Under the pieces are notes generated by a model. It had not been told where the DNA came from. It made no database searches and saw only the letters and a program-made list of their open reading frames with translations. Positions 9,600 through 25,230 of a DNA stretch of 64,000 bases are shown here, in pieces. Location: positions 372,001-436,000 of the forward strand of contig BAAIJX010000015.1 in NCBI GenBank assembly GCA_054600435.1. The letters run 5' to 3'. The translations under genes were made by a program, and so were the position numbers. Origin of the DNA: Neophaeotheca triangularis (taxonomy: Eukaryota). Positions within the stretch are counted from its first letter, which is position 1. Each line of letters opens with the position of its first letter.

Positions 9600-11560
9600 T
9601 CAAAGCTGCGCGCGGTCGCCTCCAACCTTCTTCGAGCAGAACGAAGCGAAGTATTCGTTCAGTGCGTCAACGGTCCCGCTACCTTCCACCAATCGAACTA
9701 CACACCCGACATAACCGTCCGGCCGAACGACAACAACACCACCCCTTTCCTGGTCCAGCCCCATCTTCGCGTGCGAAGCAGCCTCAGCCTCGGGTACTCT
9801 CTGGTCCCACACACTGTCGGCGTAAACATGCTCCTTGTACCTCGCCAGAATGTCCGGGAGCATGTCGTTGACCTCAATGTCCGGCCGCTTCTGGTTGAAG
9901 ACGGTGACCAATGTGAAGAAGTGGTTGTGAGGGTTGTGGCGCTCGTGGTAGTCGACACTGTCAACATCCCCGCGCTCGTAGGCCCGGTAGAAAGAGTTCT
10001 TCTTACGAAGGCCGGCAGCAAAGTCTATGAGCGCTTGCTTCGTCTTAGCATACTTCCCAGCGTAGATGTAGATTCTGTAAGAGCCATTAAGTGGTACTTC
10101 TTGCTCCAAGTGTACGACGTTGGCATCCGCAACCCGAACGACCGTGGATGGTATCAGAATACGACCAGTGCGAAGTTTGGTGGTGCCTTTTGGCTCCGAG
10201 AGGAAGAGAGGGTGCTGAGCAGGGTGCGAGTCGGACCAGTTGAAGATGTTTTCATTGTACGCCACGCCGTATCCGGAGGTAAATTCGCAGCTTGCTTTGA
10301 AGGTCTTGATGAATTCACTCTCCACCGTAGGTTGCTGCTCGCCAGCGGTGCGCTTGCTGGCGCTGCCGATCTCGCCAGCAGAGGGTTGACGTGTGGAGAA
10401 GAGTTTGGCGTACTGCGAGTCGAAGTTTAGGAGGTTTTCGGCGATGGCCTTGCGCTCGGTCTCGTAAGAACGTAGGATGGAACGTTCTGCGAAGCCACTC
10501 TCTACGTGGTGTATCTTCCATGCCAGGTTTTGCGCGTCGAGGAATGCGGTGTTCATGCCCTGGCCAGCCTTGGGAGAGTGAGTGTGGCAGCAGTCGCCCC
10601 CCATGAAGACTCTTTCGTCGAGTGTGTACCGGTCAGCGATGCCTTGGCCGATCGGGTAGACGGAGTACCATTCTACTCGGTCCCACTCAATCCAGTAAGG
10701 CTTCATTATGCGCTTTGCGGTCTCTTGAACCTGGTCAGTGGTCGCTGTCTTCCGCGGGTCAAAGTCTGGATCAGTCGAGGACGCTATCTGAATGTACAAT
10801 CGGACCATATTGGCCTCGCGGGGAATAACCATAATCGAGCCTGCATCTGAGTGTATGGTGCATTTCATCTGAATTGATGGAGTCAGCCATCATCTACGAG
10901 GCTTGTCGGCGGTGATCCTACCTTGATGTCTGGAAAATTGGTGCGCACAACGCCATCCATCACGCCCCAGACGTGCTGGATCGGGTCTTTGTGTGTGATC
11001 TTGACGCCCAACTGCTCTCGGACAAAGCTCCTCGCACCCTCACCACTGAAGAGGTATTTGGAGCGCATTGTCTCTGATTTATATCCTTCCACATGGGCGA
11101 TGCTGACTTCAACGGGGTAGTCCTTGTCCTTGCCATCATTCTTGAAGCCCGTTATCCGCCATGGTCTCTGTATCTGTACATTGTTCTTCTCAAGATCATC
11201 GATGAACACACGCTCGATCAAGCCCTGGTGCAGCAGCGTCGTGAAAGGGTATCTGGCGTCGATGAAGTTGGGACATGATGCCCAGGTGCCGGTCCTGTGG
11301 ATTCCCTTATCCTCGTCGTTCGGGTCCCAAAAGGCCACTTCGTACACTTTTGCGGGCTCGTTGGCCATGATGGCCCGCTTCAGCCCCATGTTCTTGAGGA
11401 GATCGAGCGATCGTGGTTGAATGCCATCAGCGCGGCCTGTTACTGTAGGCTCGGGTCGCATGTCGATGTGCTTGATCTTGTATCCCCATCGAGCCAAGCA
11501 GGTTGAGAGGAGCAGGCCGACTGGGCCAGCGCCCACGATGACAATGTCATACTTCTCCAT
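9600..11560 (-). CDS. FAD-dependent phenol 2-monooxygenase-like hydroxylase (about 635 aa)
   Basis: GAGPVG Rossmann motif, [28 protein letters not shown]-terminal [10 protein letters not shown]. Intron 10869-10921. Confidence 0.9.
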
Positions 11561-11978
11561 CCTCTCAGTGGGCTCGTCGTTATTCGCGAACAGGGTAGAG
11601 AGCTCTGCAGCTTGCTGTTGGATGTGTCGAAAGCTAGACTGCACCAACTGTATCGCCGGGGGCTTGATGGATGGAGGGCAAAGAAGCAAATGAGGATGAA
11701 AACAGGAGGAGGGAGAGAGAGTGCGGGCAAACCTACCATTACATATCATCAACCAGAGGTCGTGTTGCCAGATTAGGGTGGCATGGCCGCATGGAAGCCT
11801 TGACACAAGCTCCACGTTCGAGCACACGGCTAGAGAATCGGGAGGATGTCAAGGCGGGCGAAGCAAGCAAAATAGCTCCCATGTTTTGTTGCCGACGCAC
11901 CAGGAGACGTCACGAGCAAACCCCACAGCAAGACAACTAACTCTCCACTCCTCGCAACAATGAAGGTTACCGAAGGTC

Positions 11979-12005
11979 TAAGAGACTAAGAGACTAAGAG
12001 ACTAA
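11979..12005. repeat. Short tandem repeat (TAAGAGAC)x3
   Basis: taagagactaagagactaagagact in the divergent promoter region. Confidence 0.8.
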
Positions 12006-12613
12006 TAAGAGTCTAATGATTAGATGCGATGCGATCCGCCGCGGCCTTGGGATTCGGTACGGGGATGCGGCAAACTACAGTACTACTACTAGTACATACA
12101 GTACGACTGCTGCTCGCTTGTCTCTCGGCTGAACGACAGATCGCACGTCGAATCAGAACTTTTGCTTTGGTAATGTTCGGCGGGAGAGAGCTGTGGCTAA
12201 TTACCTACCTCCTACTGTAGGTGATTAACTTATAGGAGGTAGGTACTGGCTAACGTCCAACCCAGCTGGGAGGCCAAATACGGTATTTCGTACTAACTCG
12301 ACGTGCATTTTTTTCAAAATAATTATTATAATGATAATAACAACAATATCAATGATAATGCCACCTACCTAGGTAACCATCGTGGTGTTGACCTCTTTCA
12401 TTGAGCACGGCGGAGTGTGTGGGGAAGCTGTTTTTAAACTTCATGTACTGATCACGTGCAAAGGTTGTAGATCAACGACGTTCAAGTGTCGTATAGGTAG
12501 GTATATAGTCCTGCTAAACTTCAACTCGTTATTGTCCTGTAAAACTACAGCATCTTCATTCGCAAGGACCAAACCAAATCACATTCGACCTATCAACCGC
12601 TCGACATTCGAAC

Positions 12614-14311
12614 ATGGCTCCTTCGCCATCGTGGCAGACTGGGGACCCCAGTCAAATCAGCGACGCGAAACTTATATCGCTGGCACTCGTCGCCTGCACC
12701 ATTGGGTACATCATCTATCAGCGATTCCTACATCCTCTCGCCAAAATCCCTGGACCCTTCTGGGCCAGCTTATCCAGGCTATGGATCACCAAGCACTCCT
12801 GGGACGGCGACATGGCGACGACCCTCATAGCTCTGCACGACAAGTACGGGAACCTCGTGCGTACGGCCCCAAATGAGGTCAGTGTGGCCGATCTTTCCGC
12901 CATCAAACACATTTACGGCGCCGGCACCAAGTTCCGCAAATCCGACTGGTATTCGGTCTGGCAGGGCCGGCGTGTTTTCGATCTGTTTGCGGAGCGAAAT
13001 GAAAGCGTGCATGGCAGACAGCGTAGATTGGTGAGCAGGATCTACTCGATGGAGAGCTTGAAGGACCTTGAACCCTACGTCGAGGATGCCATCAAAGTGT
13101 TCCGCCAGCGCATGGACGAGCAGAAAAGTCGAATCGTTGATCTAGGGAACTGGGTGCAAATCTTCGCTTTTGGTGTGACGTCCTCTTAGATCGATATGGT
13201 TGTTTTGGGCGAGTGCTAACGTGGTTATCAGATGTCATTGGCGAGATCACGTTCTCCAAGCGCTTTGGTTTCCTCGATGTTGGCTCGGACGACGGCAGCT
13301 TTGCAGCTATCACAGAGGCCTTGAGATCCGCTTCCTGGATTGGGCAGTATCCTTTCGTTTACTGGATACACGACCGCCTCGCGCCCTATATTGGGAACAA
13401 GCTCGGAATTACCGCACGAAATGGCTCGCTCCGCCAATTTGCGGTCCGGGAAATAGCAGCTCGCAAGGATCGTGGAAGCGACCACAAAGACATGCTATCA
13501 AAGTTATTCGCTGTACAGAAAGAAAAGCCGACAGAGTTCGACGACAACGCCGTAACGAGCATGGCGTCTTCGAACATCTTCGCTGGCAGCGATACTACTG
13601 CAATCTCCACGCGAGCAATAATTTACTATCTCCTTAAAACCCCGGCCGCAAAGCAACGCTTGATCGACGAGATAGATACTCTCCGTCAATCCGACATGCC
13701 TACAGGATCAGTAACTCTGGATCAGGCGGATAAAATGCCGTACCTTCAGGCCGTCATGTACGAGGCACTTCGCATGCATCCAGCAGTAGGCCTCACACTG
13801 CCTCGTGTTGTGCACGCCGACGGCGCGGAGATCGCTGGACACTACTTTCCTGCAGGTAGCGTCGTGGGCGCTTGTCCTTGGGTCGTCCACCGGAATCGAG
13901 AGGTATTTGGCCAAGACGCCGATGTCTTTAGGCCTGAGCGGTGGTTGGACGAAAAGGGCCAGTGGGGTGGCGAGACGAATGGTGATATGCTACGCTTCTT
14001 CTTGGCATTCGGTAGTGGAGCGCGGATGGTAAGCACGACTCGAACAGTTACGGCGGAGCGAGTTCTAACTTTGATACTAGTGTCTGGGAAAAAATATCAG
14101 CTGGATGGAAATGTAAGTTGTTCGATCGAGCCCATGACGTTTGCAGGATATTGACTCTTCTGCGCACAGGTCCAAGCTAGTGCCTACCTTATTCATGCAC
14201 TATAACATAGAACTTGCAGACCCAAGTGCTGAATGGGAGATCAAAACTTGGTGGTTTGCCATGCAGACAGGAGTAAATGTGCGGCTGAGTCCGAGGCCAT
14301 CTCGAGCTTGA
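12614..14311 (+). CDS. Cytochrome P450 monooxygenase (pisatin-demethylase-like type)
   Basis: N-terminal TM helix plus HPLAKIPGP; AGSDTT I-helix, EALR, FRPERW. Heme motif FGSGARM|CLG is completed by splicing. Introns 13173-13231, 14029-14080, 14113-14169; TGA at 14309-14311. Confidence 0.92.
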
Positions 14312-16884: not shown

Positions 16885-19032
16885 ATGCAGACTCTCTGGA
16901 CGAGGCTCGCGCTGCCGAGAGCGACTTGTAAATGCCCGTCGTGCACCTCCACAGCCAGTGCCATCGCTGCGAGAAGAAGCGGAGCGGCAGCGAGCCGGCA
17001 GACGTCGCGATACCTCACCTCATCCACGCTCCTCTACTCGGGCATCTTTGCTGCCGCTGCGACTGCTGATGCCGGCGTCAAACAGAGGAGGCGGGATCAA
17101 TGGGACCGAGCAATTGCAGATGTGAAGCGCGAGCTGGCTCAGCCTGAGCAGGCTATTGAAAAGAGCCAACAGGAGGTGCAAGACGAGGACCTTGTGCAAT
17201 TCTCACCCCTTAGATCGCAAGAGACCGAGGAAGACCCTTTCAGAGACATATATCCCTGGCGTCGGAAGCCCTCTTATCCCGCTAACACTGGTCCTTCATT
17301 GAACGTTCACCATCTACCTCCGCAATCCATCTATGCCGACGACGAATCTAAAGAGCGCGCTGAACTACGATTGTGGACGCCTGCTAAGTTAGAGCGCGTT
17401 CGCCTGGCAACAGACATATTACAGCTCAACATTCTCAGGGCTTTGACGGACAATGGCTGGGAGGAAGAGGCTGCTGCTTCTGTGCCGGAGGGTCATGGGG
17501 ATTTCATTCGGCGTGCAACCAGGCAGCAGCGTGACGGAGTGATACATGACGCTATACGGCGGCGTCACTTAGCAAGGAGAGCCTTACACAAGACGGACGT
17601 AGAATTGTCACAATACCAAGGAGTGGATGAAGACGGATTTAACGTGAGCGAATTCGAACAAGACGACCGAGGTGACTTCCGAGAAATTGCACGAAGCTTG
17701 AACTACCATCTTCAAGAGCTTTTCCGACAGCACAGAAGCGCAGCAATAACAACCCCAACTCTCCTTGGCAGGCTTTCTCATGATCTGGCCATTTCTACTG
17801 CGCCCCCAACTCTCGAGACGTACAACACCCTGCTGCGAGGCTTTTCTACGGCACGGCAATACGAATTGACCTATGAGGTCGTTCACGCTCTCCGCTACAC
17901 TCACATGCGACCGAACGAGCTATCACTGAGTTCAATCCTCAATCTCAGCACCGCTACGAACAATTTTCTTCTCTTCAAGAGGTGGCTAAGATACATTGAA
18001 GGTGGAAGCGGGGGACTCTCGCTCGCTCGTCCCGATGTTGTTATTAATGACGCCGGAAAAGACCGCCTTGAGCTTACAGAAGACGGCAAAGTGATACAAC
18101 ATCCTCATCCGACCCCGCGAGTGCTTGGCGCAATCATCCGGGGTGTGTTGAGATTTTCGGGTTTCGACGCTGCGCTCAACAAGTGCAGGGAAATGGGAAT
18201 GAAGGGCTGGGGTCTGTGTGTCGAAGGGCTTCAACCACTATTAATAGATTGCGCAAACAGAGGCGATTGGGCAGCGGGCAAGGCTGTCTGGAATCAGATT
18301 CAGGTACTGGACGAACAACAGCAGAGAATCGACACCACAGATTCATCTACGCGAACTACCTTCCAGATGTACAAGGCAATGCTCAAGCTCTGCGTCGCAG
18401 CCAACAAGAACGAGAGGTCGCATGAAATATGGGATCAAGCGGTCCAAGCCTTTCCACACAAATCACGCAAGCTCGCAAGCTTGCTGTTCGAGAGTTGCGC
18501 TGAATGGGGAAACTGGACCGCCGCCAGGGCTGCGTGGACTCGAACAGGAGAGAGTGACACGTCCCGTGGGCCAAACCTTGATCCAAAAGGTTATGCCGCT
18601 ATGCTGGTGCTATGCCGGCAAGCTGACGACTTGACACTTTTCACGGAGGTCTGGGGACAGGTGGAACTTTCTCGTCATGGTCGCGAAGTTGGCTCCCTGT
18701 TGCAGAACCCCCCTAGCAAGGCCTCTCGATCTGCAGATGCGGAGATGGGTGGGTTGCCTTCAAACAGTCTGCTACCGTACGGAGACGTGCCTGACTTCCC
18801 TCTTGCCGAGCGCCAGACACCCGAAAGAAGGGATGAAGAGACTGGCGCCCTGTCGAGAGAGCCTGCGGAGCTTTCAGACTCTGCAGACCACCCGACACGA
18901 CACGTGCCCGTTGTCGACGAGCAGCCCGTAAAAGCGAAGAAACGCAAAGGGAGGTTAGCGGTATGGCAGCCGCCTCAAGAAGGCAGTGACGAGATTACAC
19001 CTGACCACGGCTTGCACAGCCAGGAGATATGA
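16885..19032 (+). CDS. Pentatricopeptide-repeat-like, probably mitochondrial, protein
   Basis: Single long ORF with first ATG at 16885. Arg/Ser/Ala-rich presequence-like N-terminus; PPR-like PTLETYNTLLRGFS..HMRPN. Confidence 0.7.
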   Translation: MQTLWTRLALPRATCKCPSCTSTASAIAARRSGAAASRQTSRYLTSSTLLYSGIFAAAATADAGVKQRRRDQWDRAIADVKRELAQPEQAIEKSQQEVQDEDLVQFSPLRSQETEEDPFRDIYPWRRKPSYPANTGPSLNVHHLPPQSIYADDESKERAELRLWTPAKLERVRLATDILQLNILRALTDNGWEEEAAASVPEGHGDFIRRATRQQRDGVIHDAIRRRHLARRALHKTDVELSQYQGVDEDGFNVSEFEQDDRGDFREIARSLNYHLQELFRQHRSAAITTPTLLGRLSHDLAISTAPPTLETYNTLLRGFSTARQYELTYEVVHALRYTHMRPNELSLSSILNLSTATNNFLLFKRWLRYIEGGSGGLSLARPDVVINDAGKDRLELTEDGKVIQHPHPTPRVLGAIIRGVLRFSGFDAALNKCREMGMKGWGLCVEGLQPLLIDCANRGDWAAGKAVWNQIQVLDEQQQRIDTTDSSTRTTFQMYKAMLKLCVAANKNERSHEIWDQAVQAFPHKSRKLASLLFESCAEWGNWTAARAAWTRTGESDTSRGPNLDPKGYAAMLVLCRQADDLTLFTEVWGQVELSRHGREVGSLLQNPPSKASRSADAEMGGLPSNSLLPYGDVPDFPLAERQTPERRDEETGALSREPAELSDSADHPTRHVPVVDEQPVKAKKRKGRLAVWQPPQEGSDEITPDHGLHSQEI

Positions 19033-19484
19033 GATGAGTTTGTGACAATACACTGATAGATTGTTGAGCATAGCGCAGGCGTTTTTGATTGGGACATGCC
19101 GTCACGGAGGCATTTAGGTTGGGATGGCGAGTATGATGTCCTTCTTTCTGCATGTAGTTGGGGGGCATGGCAAGGTGGTTCTGTATGCTCATACCCATTC
19201 ACGGAGCTTTGCTGTATAGTGTACATAAGAAGAAAAGCAGTACTGAAATGCTCTCAAATTTATTCCGCCAGCACTGGACCGTTGAAGATTCCGCTGAAGT
19301 TTCATGTCTCCGTTGGCAGCTGACAAGCAACGCGTTTCTGCTAAAGGCATGTTCTAGCGCGGCATCACACTCCTCGCCAGAGTTGACAGACCAGACCCTA
19401 AAAAGCTTCGTTTCTACACTGCCCCATGGGAGCCTGAGATACACCTAAACCCCAACCAGGGCAGGTGAAAAAAAAAGGACAAAA

Positions 19485-19568
19485 ACATACAACAGGTGGG
19501 ATTCCCACGTTGTCACCTACCGTAGTACTAGTCACCCGCTTCAGTGCTTAAATATGGCAGAGCGGACG
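19485..19568 (-). rRNA. 5S rRNA 3' fragment (nt 36-119), 5'-truncated
   Basis: Reverse complement CGTCCGCTCTGCCATATTTAAGCACTGAAGCGGGTGACTAGTACTACGG..GGGAATCCCACCTGTTGTATGT matches the ascomycete 5S layout. It is followed by a TTTTGTCCTTTTTTTTT Pol III terminator. Confidence 0.92.
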
Positions 19569-19570
19569 TT

Positions 19571-20280
19571 CGCCGCTTTGACGAAGTCGACGTGGATTGG
19601 TCGGTTGTAGACAAACGGCTGCTGGCTGCTGAGTTGGGGCGAACTTTTACGCGCCGGCAGAAACCTCAGGGTTGACATCTCTTCATTCAACTACGTGGAA
19701 GTGGAGACACAGGCTGCAGCCTCAGCTAGTGCTGCTCGAGGCGGCTCTGCCACGCAGCGTCGCTCGGGCGCCCCTTGCAGCTTGGGACCGTACTGCTGGC
19801 GCGACCCTGACGGCAAAGGCCACTACCGATTGAGAACCCACCACATGAAAAGCTTGATGATTCGGCATGTCGAAGAAGGTGATCATCTGGAGTCTCTCGT
19901 GCTAATGTCCCTGAAATGGTGCGTGTGTAGCTGTATGCGGAGCAGCAGGAGCGCTCTCAGAGGAAGCAGAAGACGTCGACGGGTGATACCGGTAGTCTCC
20001 TACCCATCACCATCAACAAAGTACTGCCTAGTAGTCGTGGCTCGGAATCTCTAGCGCGGCCTGAGGCCGTAGGAACTAAAACCACCCCTTAGGCGTCAAA
20101 CCCCCGAGACTTCGAACTTCCCGGTTTTCGCGATGTGGCACTTGACGAATACAGCGAATAGCATCAGTCGAGAGTGTTTGACGCTGAGTTTGGAAGCAGA
20201 TTCCAGAAAAGCGCGAGATGTGGCTCTGGAGAATGCACTAGACCTAGATCTGATTCACGAGGAGAATGACCCAGATGTAC
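19571..20280 (+). pseudogene. Decayed, 5'-truncated gene of an uncharacterised fungal accessory family
   Basis: Fragments across frames: RRFDEVDVDWSVVDKRLL / WGELLRAGRNLRVDISSFNY / PCSLGPYCWRDPDGKGHYRLRTHHMKSL / LPGFRDVALDEYSE*HQSRV / RKARDVALENALDLDLIHEENDPD. A 7-nt duplication (ggctgct x2) shifts the frame; TAG at 20159-20161. Family recognised from memory only. Confidence 0.65.
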
Positions 20281-20627
20281 TCAGTACGCGTATCGATCAC
20301 CGTGAGTTGCACCCTGCAACGCGTGGGAAGGGGTTATTACGGTACTGGGGGAAGTGGGCCAACTGCCCCGCTGGTCCTGAAAATTCGTCATGGGAGGCTT
20401 ATATATACTTGATCGGTTCTTATCGTACTGTAGGAAACTTTCAAGACTTGATCTCAGGTCGCTCTCTCTGCTCAAATGACATACAATGTCCCATGTTTCT
20501 ATGTAAGAACTTGCGTCATCGACGCTGAACACCCATCTTTAAAAATATCCGTGCAAGATGATTAGAATGCCCGAGGACTCGCGCAAGTACCTCAGCCGAA
20601 ACCCTCAGCTCTTCGTCATGATTGTGG

Positions 20628-21936
20628 CTAACGTCTAGCCATCTGTGCGTTCAATTAGCATTGCATCTTCTGCAAAAGAGGAATTTCTTACCACTACAGC
20701 TGTAGCAACACTAAGTATGCCAAGAACGAAAACAACTAGATACGTGCTATCCGTCTTCGCTTGCTCATCCTGCAGGTTTGGATAGTTACTTTCAATGAAC
20801 CGCTCGATCTTGCTGCACGCAGCATTGATGTCATCGAAGTGTGGGTCGTTGGGGTTATTCTTCTTCTGTATTCTTTTTGCGTATCGCCTGAATGCTTGAC
20901 AAACATGTTGCATGTCTTGTGTTGAATCGATCATGAGTTGGCACGCTGCACCCTTGGATATCTTGACGTTCCTGTCGAAAATAGCAGGGTTTTGGAAGCA
21001 GAGCTCAAGCGTCGCGATGGCCATGGACTGCGGTATTGCCACAAAGTTGAAGACTGACTGCTCACGAACGCCTGCCATGTAAGAGAGACAATCATCTGCT
21101 TTATTCAAGGCCAAGAGCACCATCTCACTACTGCACTGCAAAGCCTTCTGACGGTTCTGTGGCGACGAGAGGAGTAGCTGGTCGAAGTCGTCCGCGTACT
21201 TGGACCAGACCTCCTTGGGCCAAAAGTGTCGCTCTTGGTCGTGATCCTCGCGAACGTCCCGAATAATGTTAGTTTGCTGCAGAAACTGACCCATAGATTC
21301 GATGAGTTTCGGGTTTTTCAAAAGCGAAGGGTCCGCGACCTTGGCTTCGATGAAAAGCCGTGTCAGTCCTTCGCCCACGGTTCCTGCAACGTAGTGACAG
21401 TATTGTTCGTAATCTTCGATCCTCTTCACACTTCTCAAATCTCCATCTACCACATAATCGGCCATACCATTGCCCATTTGCTTAGTAATGTCCGCTATGA
21501 TGACCTTGTACTCGTCCTTGAGTTTGTGAAACTCTCTGCCGACACAATCAAAATGGACCAGCAACTCCCGGTCATTCTCGTCAGGACCGCTACCCTCGAA
21601 ATTCCAAGTCGGATCGAAGATGTAGGTATGAAAGTTGCGTAACAATGGCTCTTTATCATCGATGGTAAGAGTCATGTCGTCTTCGATGGTGTCGAGACCG
21701 CGTAGACACAGGTAAAAGACGCAGATGGGCATAAGGAGCTCGGGATTCAGCTCTTGGACAACGGCTACGAAGGAGCGCGAGGTCAAGGCAAGGTAACGGT
21801 AGCATTCCTTTACGTCGCGCGACTCAGCGTTCTCGTCGCGTTTGTGGACGGGGCTGTGCAGCGCTTTCCATTGGATAATAGCGCGCAGCTCCTGGATGTG
21901 GAAGAGGTAGTAGAGTGCATCTCGAGCGGAGACCAT
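20628..21936 (-). CDS. Squalene synthase (farnesyl-diphosphate farnesyltransferase), ERG9-like, probably an accessory paralogue
   Basis: ATG 21936 [62 protein letters not shown]-terminal TM helix. One probable intron 20643-20691, then MARR*; unspliced stop at 20635. Confidence 0.9.
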
Positions 21937-22508
21937 ACTGTTCGTGAAGGCGTCCGAATGACGGAATTTGTGACCATGGGGGGAAGGCTGCGTTGAGAGC
22001 GGTAAAGGAGTCTGTCGTTTGTTTGTATTGGGGCAGTTATACAAGCGAGGGCCATTCACATGGCGTGACAGTGCGCGCGCCGCCGCGGCTCGCATAGTGC
22101 CCGCTCCCGGTCCCCGCCCCCACCCAAGTAACCTAAGATCAGAGGAAAGCTTATCAGAGAACGGGGATACGAGTTGTCACTGCCGCTCTTCACGTGCAAT
22201 TGCCTCCTGTGAACATGTCAATCCTCACTTTCAGCGAGAAAGCGTCGATTAGTTTGTATTCTCGTCTGCTCATGCGCAGCCCTTATACAGTAGTAGAAAA
22301 CGCTGCCAGCGGGAGTGAGCCGGAACGTGCACTACGCCAGTCCCTGTGCGCGCGCAGACACATTACAACCGGAGTATTATCTCCCCGGCGGCAAGCGGGC
22401 TGCTCACACCCCCGAGTCCCCGTACAACTCAACAACCAAACCCTGCAGGCCCCTCGCTCTTATAACCGGCCCGGTATTTAGAAAAAAGAGGGGAAAAAAA
22501 GGACAAAA

Positions 22509-22670
22509 ACATACAACAGGTGGGACTCCCACGTGGTCACCCACCGTAGTGCTAGTCACCCGCTTCAGTGCTTGAATATGGTAGAGCGGAAGCTTACGGT
22601 CCGTCTAAATCTAAAGCAAAATAAGGTCATTTTGCGGATGCCTTAGATTCACTGAGCTGTGGTCGTATGT
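22509..22670 (-). rRNA. 5S rRNA gene interrupted by 45 nt (5' nt 1-35 at 22670-22636; 3' nt 38-119 at 22590-22509); probable pseudogene
   Basis: 5' ACATACGACCACAGCTCAGTGAATCTAAGGCATCC pairs with 3' GTTGTATGT (helix I) and CACTGAAG (helix II). AT-rich box upstream, T-run terminator downstream. Confidence 0.92.
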
Positions 22671-22772
22671 GTTCACCCTGAGTGTTTTATTGTTTATGTC
22701 CTAAACAAATCTCCCTCTAGCGCCATGATATTCACAAGAAACCCTTTGGTGATCCAACACGGACGGCTTGCT

Positions 22773-22812
22773 AGCTGAAGCGGCCAGCGGGCAGCTGAAG
22801 CGGCCAGCGGGC
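22773..22812. repeat. Perfect 20-bp tandem duplication
   Basis: agctgaagcggccagcgggc x2. Confidence 0.9.
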
Positions 22813-23339
22813 GGCAGCGTCGGGTGCCTTTGGAACATTCCCGGGTACCTTACCTTCGAAAGACGTCGCGAACTTCAGGGTTAGAGTTGTTGTAAGAGTG
22901 GGAGTCGTGAAGAACTAGATCTTGCCCCCTCGGACCTACATTTTTCTTCTCCGGCTGTCAGATCATGTCGTAGTTTAGCGTAGATAAGCGAAGAAGCTCT
23001 TCTAGTCTCTAAGGCTTTCTTTAAGGGGAAACATTGTCGATGCTCTTAGACTATAAGCTGTTGCCTCGTAAAAGGGATGAAAGAAACAGATACTCAGATC
23101 TACAGCGTCCTACGCCGATCACTTGCCTCCTTCTTGTCCACTCGCGGCCCGTAGTCGATAATTAGACAGTAAAGTTGAACTTTTAGCCCATCAGGCTGAC
23201 AAAAAGTAGGTTAGAGTTGTACTAGCCAAGAATGGGAGACGGCCTATAAGTATGCATAGGGAGTCAAATAGGCGTAGACGATCCGCAAAGTCCTCAAGAA
23301 GCTTTATGTCGACGACCATAGAGGAGCAGTAGGAAAAAT

Positions 23340-25230
23340 CTATCCGTTGGTCTGAATCTCCCGCCCTTCCTCCGAAGCGAGTAGCCTCGACCGACCCCTC
23401 GGCCTCTTTCGCTCGCCACCAATCCTGCTACTCGGCCCTCCCACAGGGCCTTGGTACTCCTTCCCAGCCATGCCAAAAACATAGAGAGCCAGCGCCGCTG
23501 CCATCAAGCCTGCAAGAATCACTACGGCCCAGTTGAAATTACGCGCTGTCGGCTTGTAGTAGGCCGGCCATAGAGACCAGAAGATGGAGTAGCTGGTGTA
23601 CAGCATCGCCATGATGTTGACAGGCAGGCCATATCTCCCGAGAGACCACTTTGAAAACGGTAGAGGCTCGTTGCGAAGTCTTCTTGAGATCATGCAGGCG
23701 ATGGAGATGAGGTAGCTTGTTTGCAGAGCTACGGTGGCAAGAGAGATGACTGTGTAGAGCGCTGTGGTGGTGGCGAGGTTTAATAGCGACAACAGGGAGG
23801 TGTAGGCGGCTGTTGATAGGATGGCGGCACGGGGGACGCTATGGTGAAGCTGACCGAGCTGGGCGTGGAAGGGGAGACCTTTGTCTCGACTAGAACAAGT
23901 GAGGTCAGCAGACATTGAATTGCGGCTTAGGCGAGATAAGGAGGCTTACGCGAACGCAAATATCTGGCGTGAAGTCACTGCCAGCGCGTTGACAGTGATC
24001 ATTAAGAGGAGTGCGAGAATGACCGCCGTAAAGGCAGTAGTAGCCCCCCAGTCGGCGTTTCGCCCGAAACTGCTGTGGAAGACGTTGAGAACTGCTGAGC
24101 GGTCAGTCGCTGCTGAACCGCGGCGAGGAAGTATAAAGATCTTACATGGGTAAGGCGGCCGCAAAACTTCCTCCACAGACCCAATGCAAAAGCAATAAGT
24201 CAAGAGCATGGCAAAAGTCAAGGGTGCATTCAGCAGGAATGCCTATGTCATGCTCTTGGGCACCACCGAGCCGGCGTCTTCGATCCCATCGGCCAAGTGA
24301 GCAACTCCGTCACTGCCAAGCACAACAAACATGCAGGAGCCTTGTCCCACGAGAGCAGACAGACTTAGACTGGGCCAGTTGCCGCCGTTGTCCGTGAAAT
24401 CCAGAAAGACGGTTCTCATCGACTGCTTGCGTGCTAGGACGAACAGGGTGACGACTATCGGAACAAAGGCGAAGACGTGGAGAGTGGCAAGGATGCCCTC
24501 TAAAAGCGACACGTGCGAGGCGGCGAGGACGTTGAAGGCTAATACGACCGCAGCCGCAGCCATAATCAAAAGCGTGACCTGGTTTGTATGTCAGAATGGC
24601 CTACGCCCCTTTCACCATTTGTGAGCATTGTCACCAACATGCCTACAAGATTGGATTAGCAATGGTGCTGCTGCCGCGGAGTAGGCTCAGCTTACCATCT
24701 CGCAGGATCATACGAAGTAGCGTGGATCGTGATTAGGGCTTGGAAGACTGAAGCAATAATGTAACAATTGACAGCGACAACGCTTTGCTAGGCGATGGTC
24801 GACTGTATTCGTTAGTAATGGATGCGCAGACCTCCTCCGAATCGTCTGACAACGCACGATCCAGCCGGAGCAGTAGGATAAAAGTTTCCGGTGTTTCGCA
24901 GGAGCGAGTAGGAACACGCAGCCTAGTCCATGGTCAACCAGGAGGTCAGCAGTGAAGTTTGGACAGCTCATAGACTCACGATACTGAGCTCCGGCAGTCG
25001 GGAGAATGCTGGCAATCTCAGCCAACGAGAGCACGACGAAGAACTGTCCAACATAAGCCAGGACGAGGGACCAGAAAAGCAAGGCGACGCCACCATTCGT
25101 TAATCCCAGGCCATTGACTGTGAGGAAGATCTCCTAGGTTCCCGCGATGCACGAGGCGAAGCCAACGGATGATACATAGCAGAAACTGCGCTGTAGTTCT
25201 CGCTTCCGCGACAAGGGCTTGCGATTTTGC
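23340..25230 (-). pseudogene. APC-family amino-acid/GABA/choline permease pseudogene
   Basis: ELQRSF..GT*EIFL..GLTNGG..LSLAEIASILPTAGAQY; GSDGVAHLA; VVPKSMT*; TSRQIFAFA; WSLGRYGLPVN; FNWAVV. In-frame TAG at 25134-25136 and 24243-24245. Boundaries are approximate. Confidence 0.8.

Follow-up and report, generated by a model that had tools for sequence, protein, structure and literature searches.

A squalene synthase gene within a split 5S rRNA gene of Neophaeotheca triangularis, tentatively a remnant of Starship-type events

Introduction

How does an intact squalene synthase (SQS) gene come to lie inside a broken 5S ribosomal RNA (rRNA) gene, with a 3' part of a 5S gene on each of its sides? 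The question is posed by a 3-kb island in the fungus Neophaeotheca triangularis, within 64,000 nucleotides (nt) of genomic DNA that were analyzed as a whole and that we call the window (assembly GCA_054600435.1, contig BAAIJX010000015.1, positions 372,001 to 436,000 of the forward strand). A first-pass annotation, made from the letters alone, had likened the island's layout to that of prophage attachment (att) sites and had considered an element targeted to 5S genes as its origin.

The att layout of bacterial islands and prophages is textbook knowledge. Fungi harbor 5S-targeting elements in the Starship families Voyager, Arwing and Enterprise/Osiris, whose captains are DUF3435 tyrosine recombinases, and the named Starships measure 15-700 kb. 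To our knowledge, the tyrosine recombinases of Starships are the only 5S-site-specific agents in Pezizomycotina. Here we describe the island, its cargo and its occurrence in other sequenced material, and we argue, tentatively, that it may be what remains, immobile and devoid of a recombinase, after site-specific events of Starship type had affected two 5S copies.

Results

Two complementary 5S pieces are broken at the same place

Coordinates are positions in the 64,000-nt window, and the island and the 5S pieces are described on the minus strand. Read in that direction, 5S nt 1-35 are followed by 45 foreign nt, by 5S nt 38-119 with a run of T, by the SQS gene, by gene debris, and finally by 5S nt 36-119 with an identical T-run. 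The parts of the locus are the following.

22636..22670, minus strand: 5S nt 1-35, the 5' portion of the split gene, whose last letters fall in the CCCG of loop C (Rfam alignment, slicing)
22591..22635, minus strand: 45-nt filler (slicing, folding, shuffle test)
22508..22590, minus strand: 5S nt 38-119/120, copy A3, including the internal-promoter region (Rfam, repeat search, folding)
22494..22507, minus strand: T-rich terminator stretch common to both copies (the repeat extends to 22494)
21937..22493, minus strand: 557-nt upstream region of the SQS gene (slicing; straw-metagenome contigs match to 22472)
20628..21936, minus strand: squalene synthase gene of the R6 type, 419 amino acids (aa), two exons, 49-nt intron at 20643-20691 (Pfam, homology, tree, splice model)
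20229..20447, plus strand: relic of a Ty3/gypsy integrase C-terminal chromodomain (phmmer, domains, tblastn)
19568..20282, plus strand: frameshifted relic of a Pezizomycotina protein family of about 450 aa, with in-frame stops (phmmer, tblastn, profile)
19484..19568, minus strand: 5S nt 36-119/120, copy B3 (Rfam, slicing, folding)
19470..19483, minus strand: the same T-rich terminator stretch, second copy (direct repeat)

The Rfam model of 5S rRNA (5S_rRNA, RF00001) aligned over its full length (positions 1-120) to 22508-22670 (-) with 60.3 bits, where the gathering score is 38 (E 2.5e-11 in a 4.2-kb search). This alignment contains one 49-position insert in the region of helix III and loop C, which corresponds to the 45 foreign nt and to the loss of nt 36-37; helix III and loop C, which are continuous in a functional 5S gene, are interrupted here. 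The model scored 29.8 bits against 19484-19608 (-), under the gathering score, with a good alignment for the 3' two thirds alone, nt 1-35 being absent. Over the whole window, a run at the gathering score gave 0 matches, so that neither 5S was listed, and an E-value run returned only the two 3' parts (30.7 and 29.8 bits), with no further 5S or tRNA in the 64 kb.

Slicing placed nt 36 at 19568 and downward (CG, then the same sequence as in the other copy) and nt 38 at 22590 and downward. An intact 5S gene reads ...CATCC CG TCCG..., with nt 34-37 forming the CCCG; the three ends created by the breaks lie at nt 35, 36 and 38. When 5S nt 1-35 were joined in a script to the piece that starts at 19568, the resulting 120 nt folded with a closing helix I (-33.6 kcal/mol), and the join is identical to intact 5S copies found elsewhere in the genome (a loose end at 22636 in the public run X2, introduced below). 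Rfam, the repeat search and slicing thus confirm to the base the order and coordinates of the split 5S gene in the first-pass annotation, and its statements that removal of 19569-22635 rebuilds a 5S gene and that both copies break at nt 35-37 hold as well. Chance is an unlikely explanation for this arrangement, because the 64 kb contain no 5S match besides these two, which share their orientation, are separated by 3 kb and have breaks at most 2 nt from each other.

Together with their terminators, the two 3' parts form a direct repeat of 97 nt (19470-19566 and 22494-22590) that is 94% identical over copies 3024 nt apart (blastn E 3.5e-37); the T-rich stretch, 14-16 nt long, is the same after both. 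No other repeat of the island region was found inside the window by blastn. Copy A3 deviates from other 5S copies at about 4 positions, with 22551 unlike all 15 other contigs, two changes in copy B3 break pairs of helix IV, and the 3' parts differ from each other at 6 of 83 positions. Both bear private changes, which give rise to unique words. We propose that both 5S pieces are decaying pseudogenes. The internal RNA polymerase III (Pol III) promoter of other eukaryotes maps to a stretch kept in both 3' parts (22508-22590 and 19484-19568), each of which also has a T-run; Pol III might therefore conceivably produce chimeric transcripts that begin with foreign sequence.

A 20-nt GC-rich unit occurs twice in perfect tandem at 22773-22812, about 100 nt upstream of where the 5S begins.

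The filler fits an end-joining scar

On the minus strand, the 45-nt filler begins with a hairpin with a 7-bp stem (22616-22635), and 22608-22618 repeats 5S nt 22-32, which lie just to the left of the break, in inverted form with 10 of 11 letters matching. In a post hoc shuffle test (n=5000), 0.6% of shuffles did equally well or better against the 20 nt left of the break and 3.5% against the whole 5S. Inverted copies of flanking sequence within an insert are a pattern of synthesis-dependent (snap-back) end joining, according to two papers (PMC5728401, PMC2943611). The 45 nt fit such a pattern and may be read as an end-joining repair scar.

The cargo is an R6-type squalene synthase

The SQS gene is intact: its product matches PF00494 (E 4e-41) and has both Asp-rich catalytic motifs and, once the intron is spliced out, 419 aa with the C-terminal pattern of R6. 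Among the matches listed, the best named one is R6 from the squalestatin cluster of Phoma sp. MF5453, at 79% identity, and one JGI protein (P0001) is 97% identical. Identity to ERG9 of the host's group is 60-69%, and 60-66% to four ERG9 rows in their clade of the tree described below. The host itself is placed in Dothideomycetidae by its Exo84, whose best named matches reach 63-67% (Teratosphaeriaceae, Cladosporium, Hortaea) and whose closest relative reaches 84%.

A tree was built from 48 rows, comprising 47 of the 120 listed matches and the window protein (quick IQ-TREE run, LG+G4), with a midpoint root that serves the drawing alone. In this tree the window SQS is joined first by P0001 (SH-aLRT 99), then by R6 and P0019 (100), and then by JGI and Pyrenochaeta proteins (98), while all 25 ERG9-type rows of Dothideomycetidae form a separate clade (SH-aLRT 100). 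No residues diagnostic of the R6 clade were found under strict criteria. A second SQS-like stretch is present in the source genome, on a 50.8-kb contig.

To judge from identity and tree, the island SQS is an ortholog of R6 and is distinct from the host's own ERG9. It resembles the Phoma protein in its 79% identity, its sister position in the tree, its length (R6 also has 419 aa) and its C-terminus. We infer that the cargo is probably foreign to the host lineage, since it groups with a cluster gene of Pleosporales and not with the host's order. By its database description, R6 is a candidate self-resistance gene of the squalestatin cluster. Unlike R6, the island SQS lies outside any squalestatin cluster as far as the open reading frames (ORFs) scanned in the 64-kb window go, among which we found no polyketide synthase, citrate synthase or other cluster gene. 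This Pfam scan covered 33 ORFs (5 + 22 + 6), of which the 22 were picked from the 63 of at least 150 aa by keeping the longest at each place and dropping overlapping antisense frames; it is not exhaustive. An extra SQS would plausibly protect the fungus from squalestatin-type inhibitors made by competitors.

The far end of the island is a break inside a gene relic

The debris between the SQS gene and copy B3 combines a gene relic and a Ty3/gypsy chromodomain fragment. A HMMER search of the ORF at 20073-20528 (+) against 1.84 billion representatives gave 8 matches at E <= 0.001. Three proteins, P0242, P0246 and P0247 (phmmer E 3e-7 to 6e-4), carry the SH3_Tf2-1 and Chromo domains of Ty3/gypsy integrases and align at 20229-20447. 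Two others, P0245 and P0248, align to 19767-20354 by tblastn with 38-58% identity (E 1e-27 to 1e-31). P0245 represents a family of "hypothetical proteins" of about 450 aa in Cladosporium, Alternaria, Bipolaris, Colletotrichum, Aspergillus, Penicillium and others, often with several copies per genome.

A profile of 49 family members (P0245 and those of P0249-P0299 with 380-520 aa) matches 19568-20282 (+) in two alternating frames over positions 170-434 of 468, with E from 1e-7 to 2e-30; the decayed gene seen by the first-pass annotation is therefore as real as its squalene synthase. The relic lacks everything before profile position 170, and its homology begins at the very base where it meets 5S nt 36, so that the right end of the island is a break inside a gene relic and not the terminus of an element. 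We also considered a full-length second 5S copy, given that 19600-19610, roughly where the start of such a copy would be expected, agrees with 5S nt 1-11 in 9 of 11 letters, and rejected it: 58% of shuffles reach the local score, and the likeness was dismissed because these positions are the antisense of the coding sequence of the relic.

The chromodomain fragment is fused in frame with the end of the relic of the 450-aa family. The relic ORFs gave no Pfam match at or above cut-offs, and for the ORF at 19611-20054 the protein atlas gave no usable match. For the P0245 family, we found no significant Pfam domain, only unnamed clusters in the protein atlas, and only marginal glutaredoxin matches among Protein Data Bank (PDB) sequences (E >= 0.017). 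An AlphaFold model of the family (mean pLDDT 74) had no Foldseek match in the PDB at E <= 0.001, and the weak rows (TM 0.11-0.15) are noise. Conserved Cys, His and Trp positions were observed in the family formed by P0245 and P0249-P0367, for example C244, C249, C255 and H264 in P0251. The family may be an unrecognized transposon protein.

The island is present in two strains

Two of 21 public sequencing runs contain much of the stretch, with 0.96 (X1, possibly the source) and 0.49 (X2, which has the same organism code) of the sampled words, and were compared with it at >=80% likeness. X1 reproduces every unique junction with 0 differences. X2 differs from the window by about 0.9-1.3% (10 of 1162 letters in one comparison, 25 letters and one gap in 1947 in another) and carries the island minus two stretches of the relic region, 20043-20577 (535 nt) and 19778-19900 (123 nt), with the SQS gene kept. 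As the island is in both X1 and X2, it is older than the split of the two strains, and the deletions in X2 indicate ongoing decay of the relics alongside retention of the SQS gene. Read depth was 134 for the single contig of the island and 126-132 for the flanks. For X2, depth was about 64 in the island and 94-117 in the flanks, and was uneven elsewhere too (50.7-217).

Candidate empty sites were rejected. The joint 19568-22636 in X2, which skips the island, has a short side of only 36 letters and is an intact 5S from elsewhere, and joints at 22581/22587 that skip 44 nt are other 5S copies aligned over the filler. Run X21, which has the same organism label, gave only weak SQS and 5S matches and is not usable as a relative. 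The metagenome loci L001 and L002 (both with an SQS 69% identical) and also L003 gave no 5S match at E up to 1 and are too distant to serve as empty or filled sites.

The dispersed 5S family appears large: depth at 22551, summed over 15 contigs, reaches 16819 vs about 130 for single-copy DNA, although this sum cannot be taken as a count of copies. In X1, at least two other single-copy contigs (90 kb and 14.6 kb) have 5S 3' pieces in their interior, whose likeness to 5S stops at about nt 48 and about nt 42, respectively. In each strain, two contigs extend from nt 42 with letters that resemble each other. 5S 3' parts truncated at nearby breakpoints are thus a recurrent feature of the genome. Diverged second copies of 22632-22926 and 23124-23310, which span the 5S 5' part and upstream DNA, occur elsewhere in the source genome with 31 differing letters each, so 5S genes seem to duplicate along with their upstream flank.

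Sequences related to the island also occur in a straw metagenome (X3), whose contigs match 19625-22472, relics included, at about 81-96% identity. At >=80% likeness, X3 gives almost no cover of the island flanks, missing cover being no evidence here, and one of its contigs continues with about 1.2 kb of unlike sequence past 22472.

Likeness to known elements and arrangements

For 5S-targeting Starships, one paper describes at least 5 internal sites and direct repeats of 6-16 bp, and gives a CCCG/GGGC core motif for the Arwing family (PMC11162782). Rows 11463 and 11474 of its table S7 hold a catalogued 65-kb Starship whose 17-nt direct repeat is the reverse complement of 5S nt ~25-41. Two further papers report that Voyager inserts into the 5S gene at a distance of 20 bp from its 5' end (PMC9156397) and that Osiris elements fragment 5S copies in Aspergillus fumigatus (PMC12153272). 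Starships have family-specific targets, often in 5S genes, and the breaks described here fall in CCCG at nt 34-37, which is the core reported for Arwing, and inside the direct repeat of the 65-kb element. Like Starships, the island places cargo DNA at an internal site of a dispersed 5S gene, fragmenting it, in a Pezizomycotina host. It differs from them in measuring 3 kb and not tens to hundreds of kb, in lacking a captain among the ORFs scanned as well as direct or terminal repeats, in bearing an 82-nt copy of the 3' part of its target, and in that one end breaks inside a gene relic.

The comparison with att sites in the first-pass annotation holds for the layout and fails for the state of the target. 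As in islands and prophages of bacterial tRNA genes, the 5' part of the target is followed by a 3' copy borne by the element, by cargo and by the displaced original 3' part in direct orientation, and a direct duplication of the target's 3' part is found at both ends (97 nt, 94%). Unlike in bacterial islands, the 5S gene is not restored, with 45 nt inserted and interrupting it and 2 nt lost, the far end is no att site, and no integrase stands beside the ends or anywhere in the 33 ORFs.

Cassandra elements (TRIMp3) have direct repeats with a promoter-bearing 5S part and a terminator around an internal region; they are known only from plants, and Ajax, the other 5S-bearing family, only from two nemertean species, according to one paper (PMC10886601). 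The direct repeats of the island, which also consist of a promoter-bearing 5S part and a terminator, bracket an internal region in the same way. Unlike those of Cassandra, they comprise a 5S piece and a T-run alone (97 nt), the interior of 2.9 kb holds an intron-containing gene of the kind transcribed by RNA polymerase II, and a target-site duplication is absent, the outer neighboring 5 nt being different.

Rooney and Ward reportedly described, in 2005, dispersed 5S families with many truncated copies in filamentous ascomycetes (Aspergillus, Neurospora), and the 5S pseudogenes of Aspergillus are said to retain the 5' half. Unlike in those pseudogenes, the 3' part is kept twice here, and the two pieces are exactly complementary.

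Genes around the island

The host-side flanks of the island are formed by two genes.

16885..19032, plus strand: PPR-like gene (ORFs, Pfam)
23340..23915, minus strand: amino-acid permease gene, C-terminal part (ORFs, Pfam)

The permease beside the 5S gene reads as several short ORFs over 23340-24563 (-). Genes in the window encode Dcc1, a protein kinase, the PPR protein, the amino-acid permease, FAD synthase, NDH2, aldehyde dehydrogenase, Exo84, Tom20, a kinesin and a DENN protein, and the SQS gene stands alone between housekeeping genes. At 9600-14154, a phenol-hydroxylase-type FAD monooxygenase (two ORFs) adjoins a cytochrome P450 amid housekeeping genes; this may be a small accessory metabolic locus.

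Discussion

The reading that we favor, with reserve, is that site-specific Starship-type events acted on two 5S copies and left the island as an immobile remnant that lacks a recombinase. A single dispersed 5S gene between the PPR and permease genes would have been cut in loop C, inside CCCG (nt 34-37), and would now hold a mosaic of 3,067 bp (19569-22635) that runs from the filler through a second 5S 3' part with its terminator, the R6-type SQS gene and a Ty3/gypsy chromodomain fragment to a truncated relic abutting host nt 36. The event itself may have been of Starship type and have involved two occupied or cleaved 5S sites. By one route, excision or deletion between non-cognate ends of nested or neighboring insertions would have joined host nt 1-35 to a 5S 3' part inside the element, of which the distal 3 kb would have stayed; by another, a fragment released by cleavage at the same site would have been captured. 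Either route could have left a captain-less remnant whose left side was closed by synthesis-dependent end joining and whose right side was closed by an illegitimate join; it would no longer be mobile, and the SQS gene survives in it intact. Described as a simple insertion, the 3,067 bp would have entered between nt 35 and 36 as a piece in which a 5S cut at nt 38 was already preceded by 45 nt. Since the host 5S and the insert-borne 5S are broken at most 2 nt apart, a site-specific agent would have to have cut two different 5S copies, and because every scheme that we drew requires two 5S copies cut at one place, an agent of the Starship-recombinase type is favored.

The support for an origin from a 5S-targeted element is circumstantial. 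It consists, for this claim of the first-pass annotation, of the CCCG motif and the truncated 5S parts elsewhere in the genome, and several observations weigh against it and against the reading that we favor. Neither a DUF3435 captain nor another recombinase or transposase was found in the 33 window ORFs scanned with Pfam. No direct repeats mark the boundaries, at most CG being shared (on the left, ...CATCC is followed by filler; on the right, the relic is followed by CG TCCG...), the island ends show no terminal inverted repeat, and the far end, as described above, is not an element terminus. The size of 3 kb is far under the 15-700 kb of named Starships, and the GC content of the island (52.1%) shows no difference from that of the flanks (52.7-53.3%). 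The first-pass annotation had proposed to look for an empty site; both strains examined carry the island, and neither an empty site nor a presence-absence polymorphism was seen in X1 and X2, which are two strains only. For the other 5S fragments, breakpoints carry an uncertainty of about 10 nt, the shuffle statistic for the filler is post hoc, and the match to Starship targets consists of the motif statement of one paper and one row of its table. The first-pass annotation had rightly cautioned that the sequence alone cannot separate the models.

How else could the locus have arisen? Repair of a break without any element is possible but, in our judgment, unlikely. A chance break in the 5S gene would have been repaired by copying or capturing ectopic or foreign DNA that starts in another 5S, with 5S homology used on the left and a non-homologous join made on the right. 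Pol III genes are fragile sites, and several features suit this account: the snap-back signature in the filler, a right junction inside a gene relic, an insert that is a patchwork of truncated pieces, and the lack of a recombinase in the ORFs scanned and of direct or inverted repeats. However, a random break followed by homology-driven invasion does not predict that host and donor break at most 2 nt apart, and a homologous join on the left should be seamless instead of holding a 45-nt filler. The depth of the island, 134 against 126-132 in the flanks, shows that no donor copy remains, and the break coincides with a core motif published for a recombinase (PMC11162782). Integration of the Campbell type is distinctly unlikely in our eyes, even though it is the only simple crossover scheme that gives the observed order. 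A circle with 5S nt 36-119, the SQS gene and the relics would have recombined, through its 5S part, with a resident 5S that already held the 45-nt scar. The direct orientation of the two 97-nt repeats agrees with this, and the apparently many dispersed 5S copies would offer many landing sites, but 82 nt are short for efficient homologous integration, and the joint in X2 that "goes back" from 22591 to 19469 (short side of 42 letters) is wholly 5S and may stem from other copies. Such an integration also needs two independent breaks at one 5S position, the resident scar at nt 35/38 and the circle junction at nt 36, so a site-specific agent would still be required.

More doubtful yet is that nothing was inserted and that the arrangement is an old resident one, in which two neighboring 5S genes and an SQS gene, produced for example by local duplication, have decayed separately. 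Its presence in both strains, a GC content equal to that of the flanks and the frequency of 5S fragments in the genome are in line with this, as is the difference of 6 in 83 between the 3' parts, which exceeds the 0.9-1.3% between strains and indicates that the event is not recent. Independent decay, however, predicts neither breaks at most 2 nt apart nor an exact 5S gene upon removal of the interval; the SQS gene groups with the Pleosporales cluster gene and not with the host's order; and in place of its 5' part, the second copy has a gene relic starting at the junction. We find it barely credible that the locus is an assembly artefact, that is, a mis-join through repeated 5S sequence of an island that does not truly lie between these flanks. 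The independent short-read contigs of X1 and X2 do stop within the 5S parts (17000-19499, 19528-22523, 22642-25000), as is usual for such contigs at repeats, and none bridges a whole 5S piece. Yet the same contigs confirm the junctions of flank and T-run, of 5S nt 36 and relic, and of T-run and SQS upstream region, with 0 differences in X1, the private changes in both 3' parts provide unique words, and the window lies in a 481-kb contig.

A small 5S-targeted insertion without a captain in the ORFs scanned, with a copy of the target's 3' part and an orphan gene of resistance type, is unusual. We found no report of a fungal island bearing a copy of the 5S 3' part in the literature searched, Starship accounts included. 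A broader idea, which we regard as a long shot, is that dispersed 5S genes and a loop-C-specific recombinase acting in trans might together form an integration platform for small recombinase-less cassettes that bring their own 5S 3' part, a fungal form of att- or integron-like capture. Such a platform would have brought an orphan squalestatin-resistance SQS into another order, and related cassettes would circulate among straw-inhabiting fungi.

If the island is indeed a remnant of Starship-type events at two 5S copies, it would show what a decayed 5S-targeted giant transposon, or an event catalyzed by one, can leave behind, namely a small island that is fixed and retains a single useful gene. 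With its 82-nt copy of the target's 3' part, the insert would resemble the att architecture of bacteria, for which we found no description in a fungal element in the literature searched. Complementary 5S pieces broken at the core site of a recombinase would then serve as a recognition mark, and screens for them could find islands that captain-based finders miss. Finally, an extra SQS of the self-resistance type outside any biosynthetic cluster would suggest that resistance genes that duplicate a drug target can spread alone among fungi, as antibiotic resistance does in bacteria.

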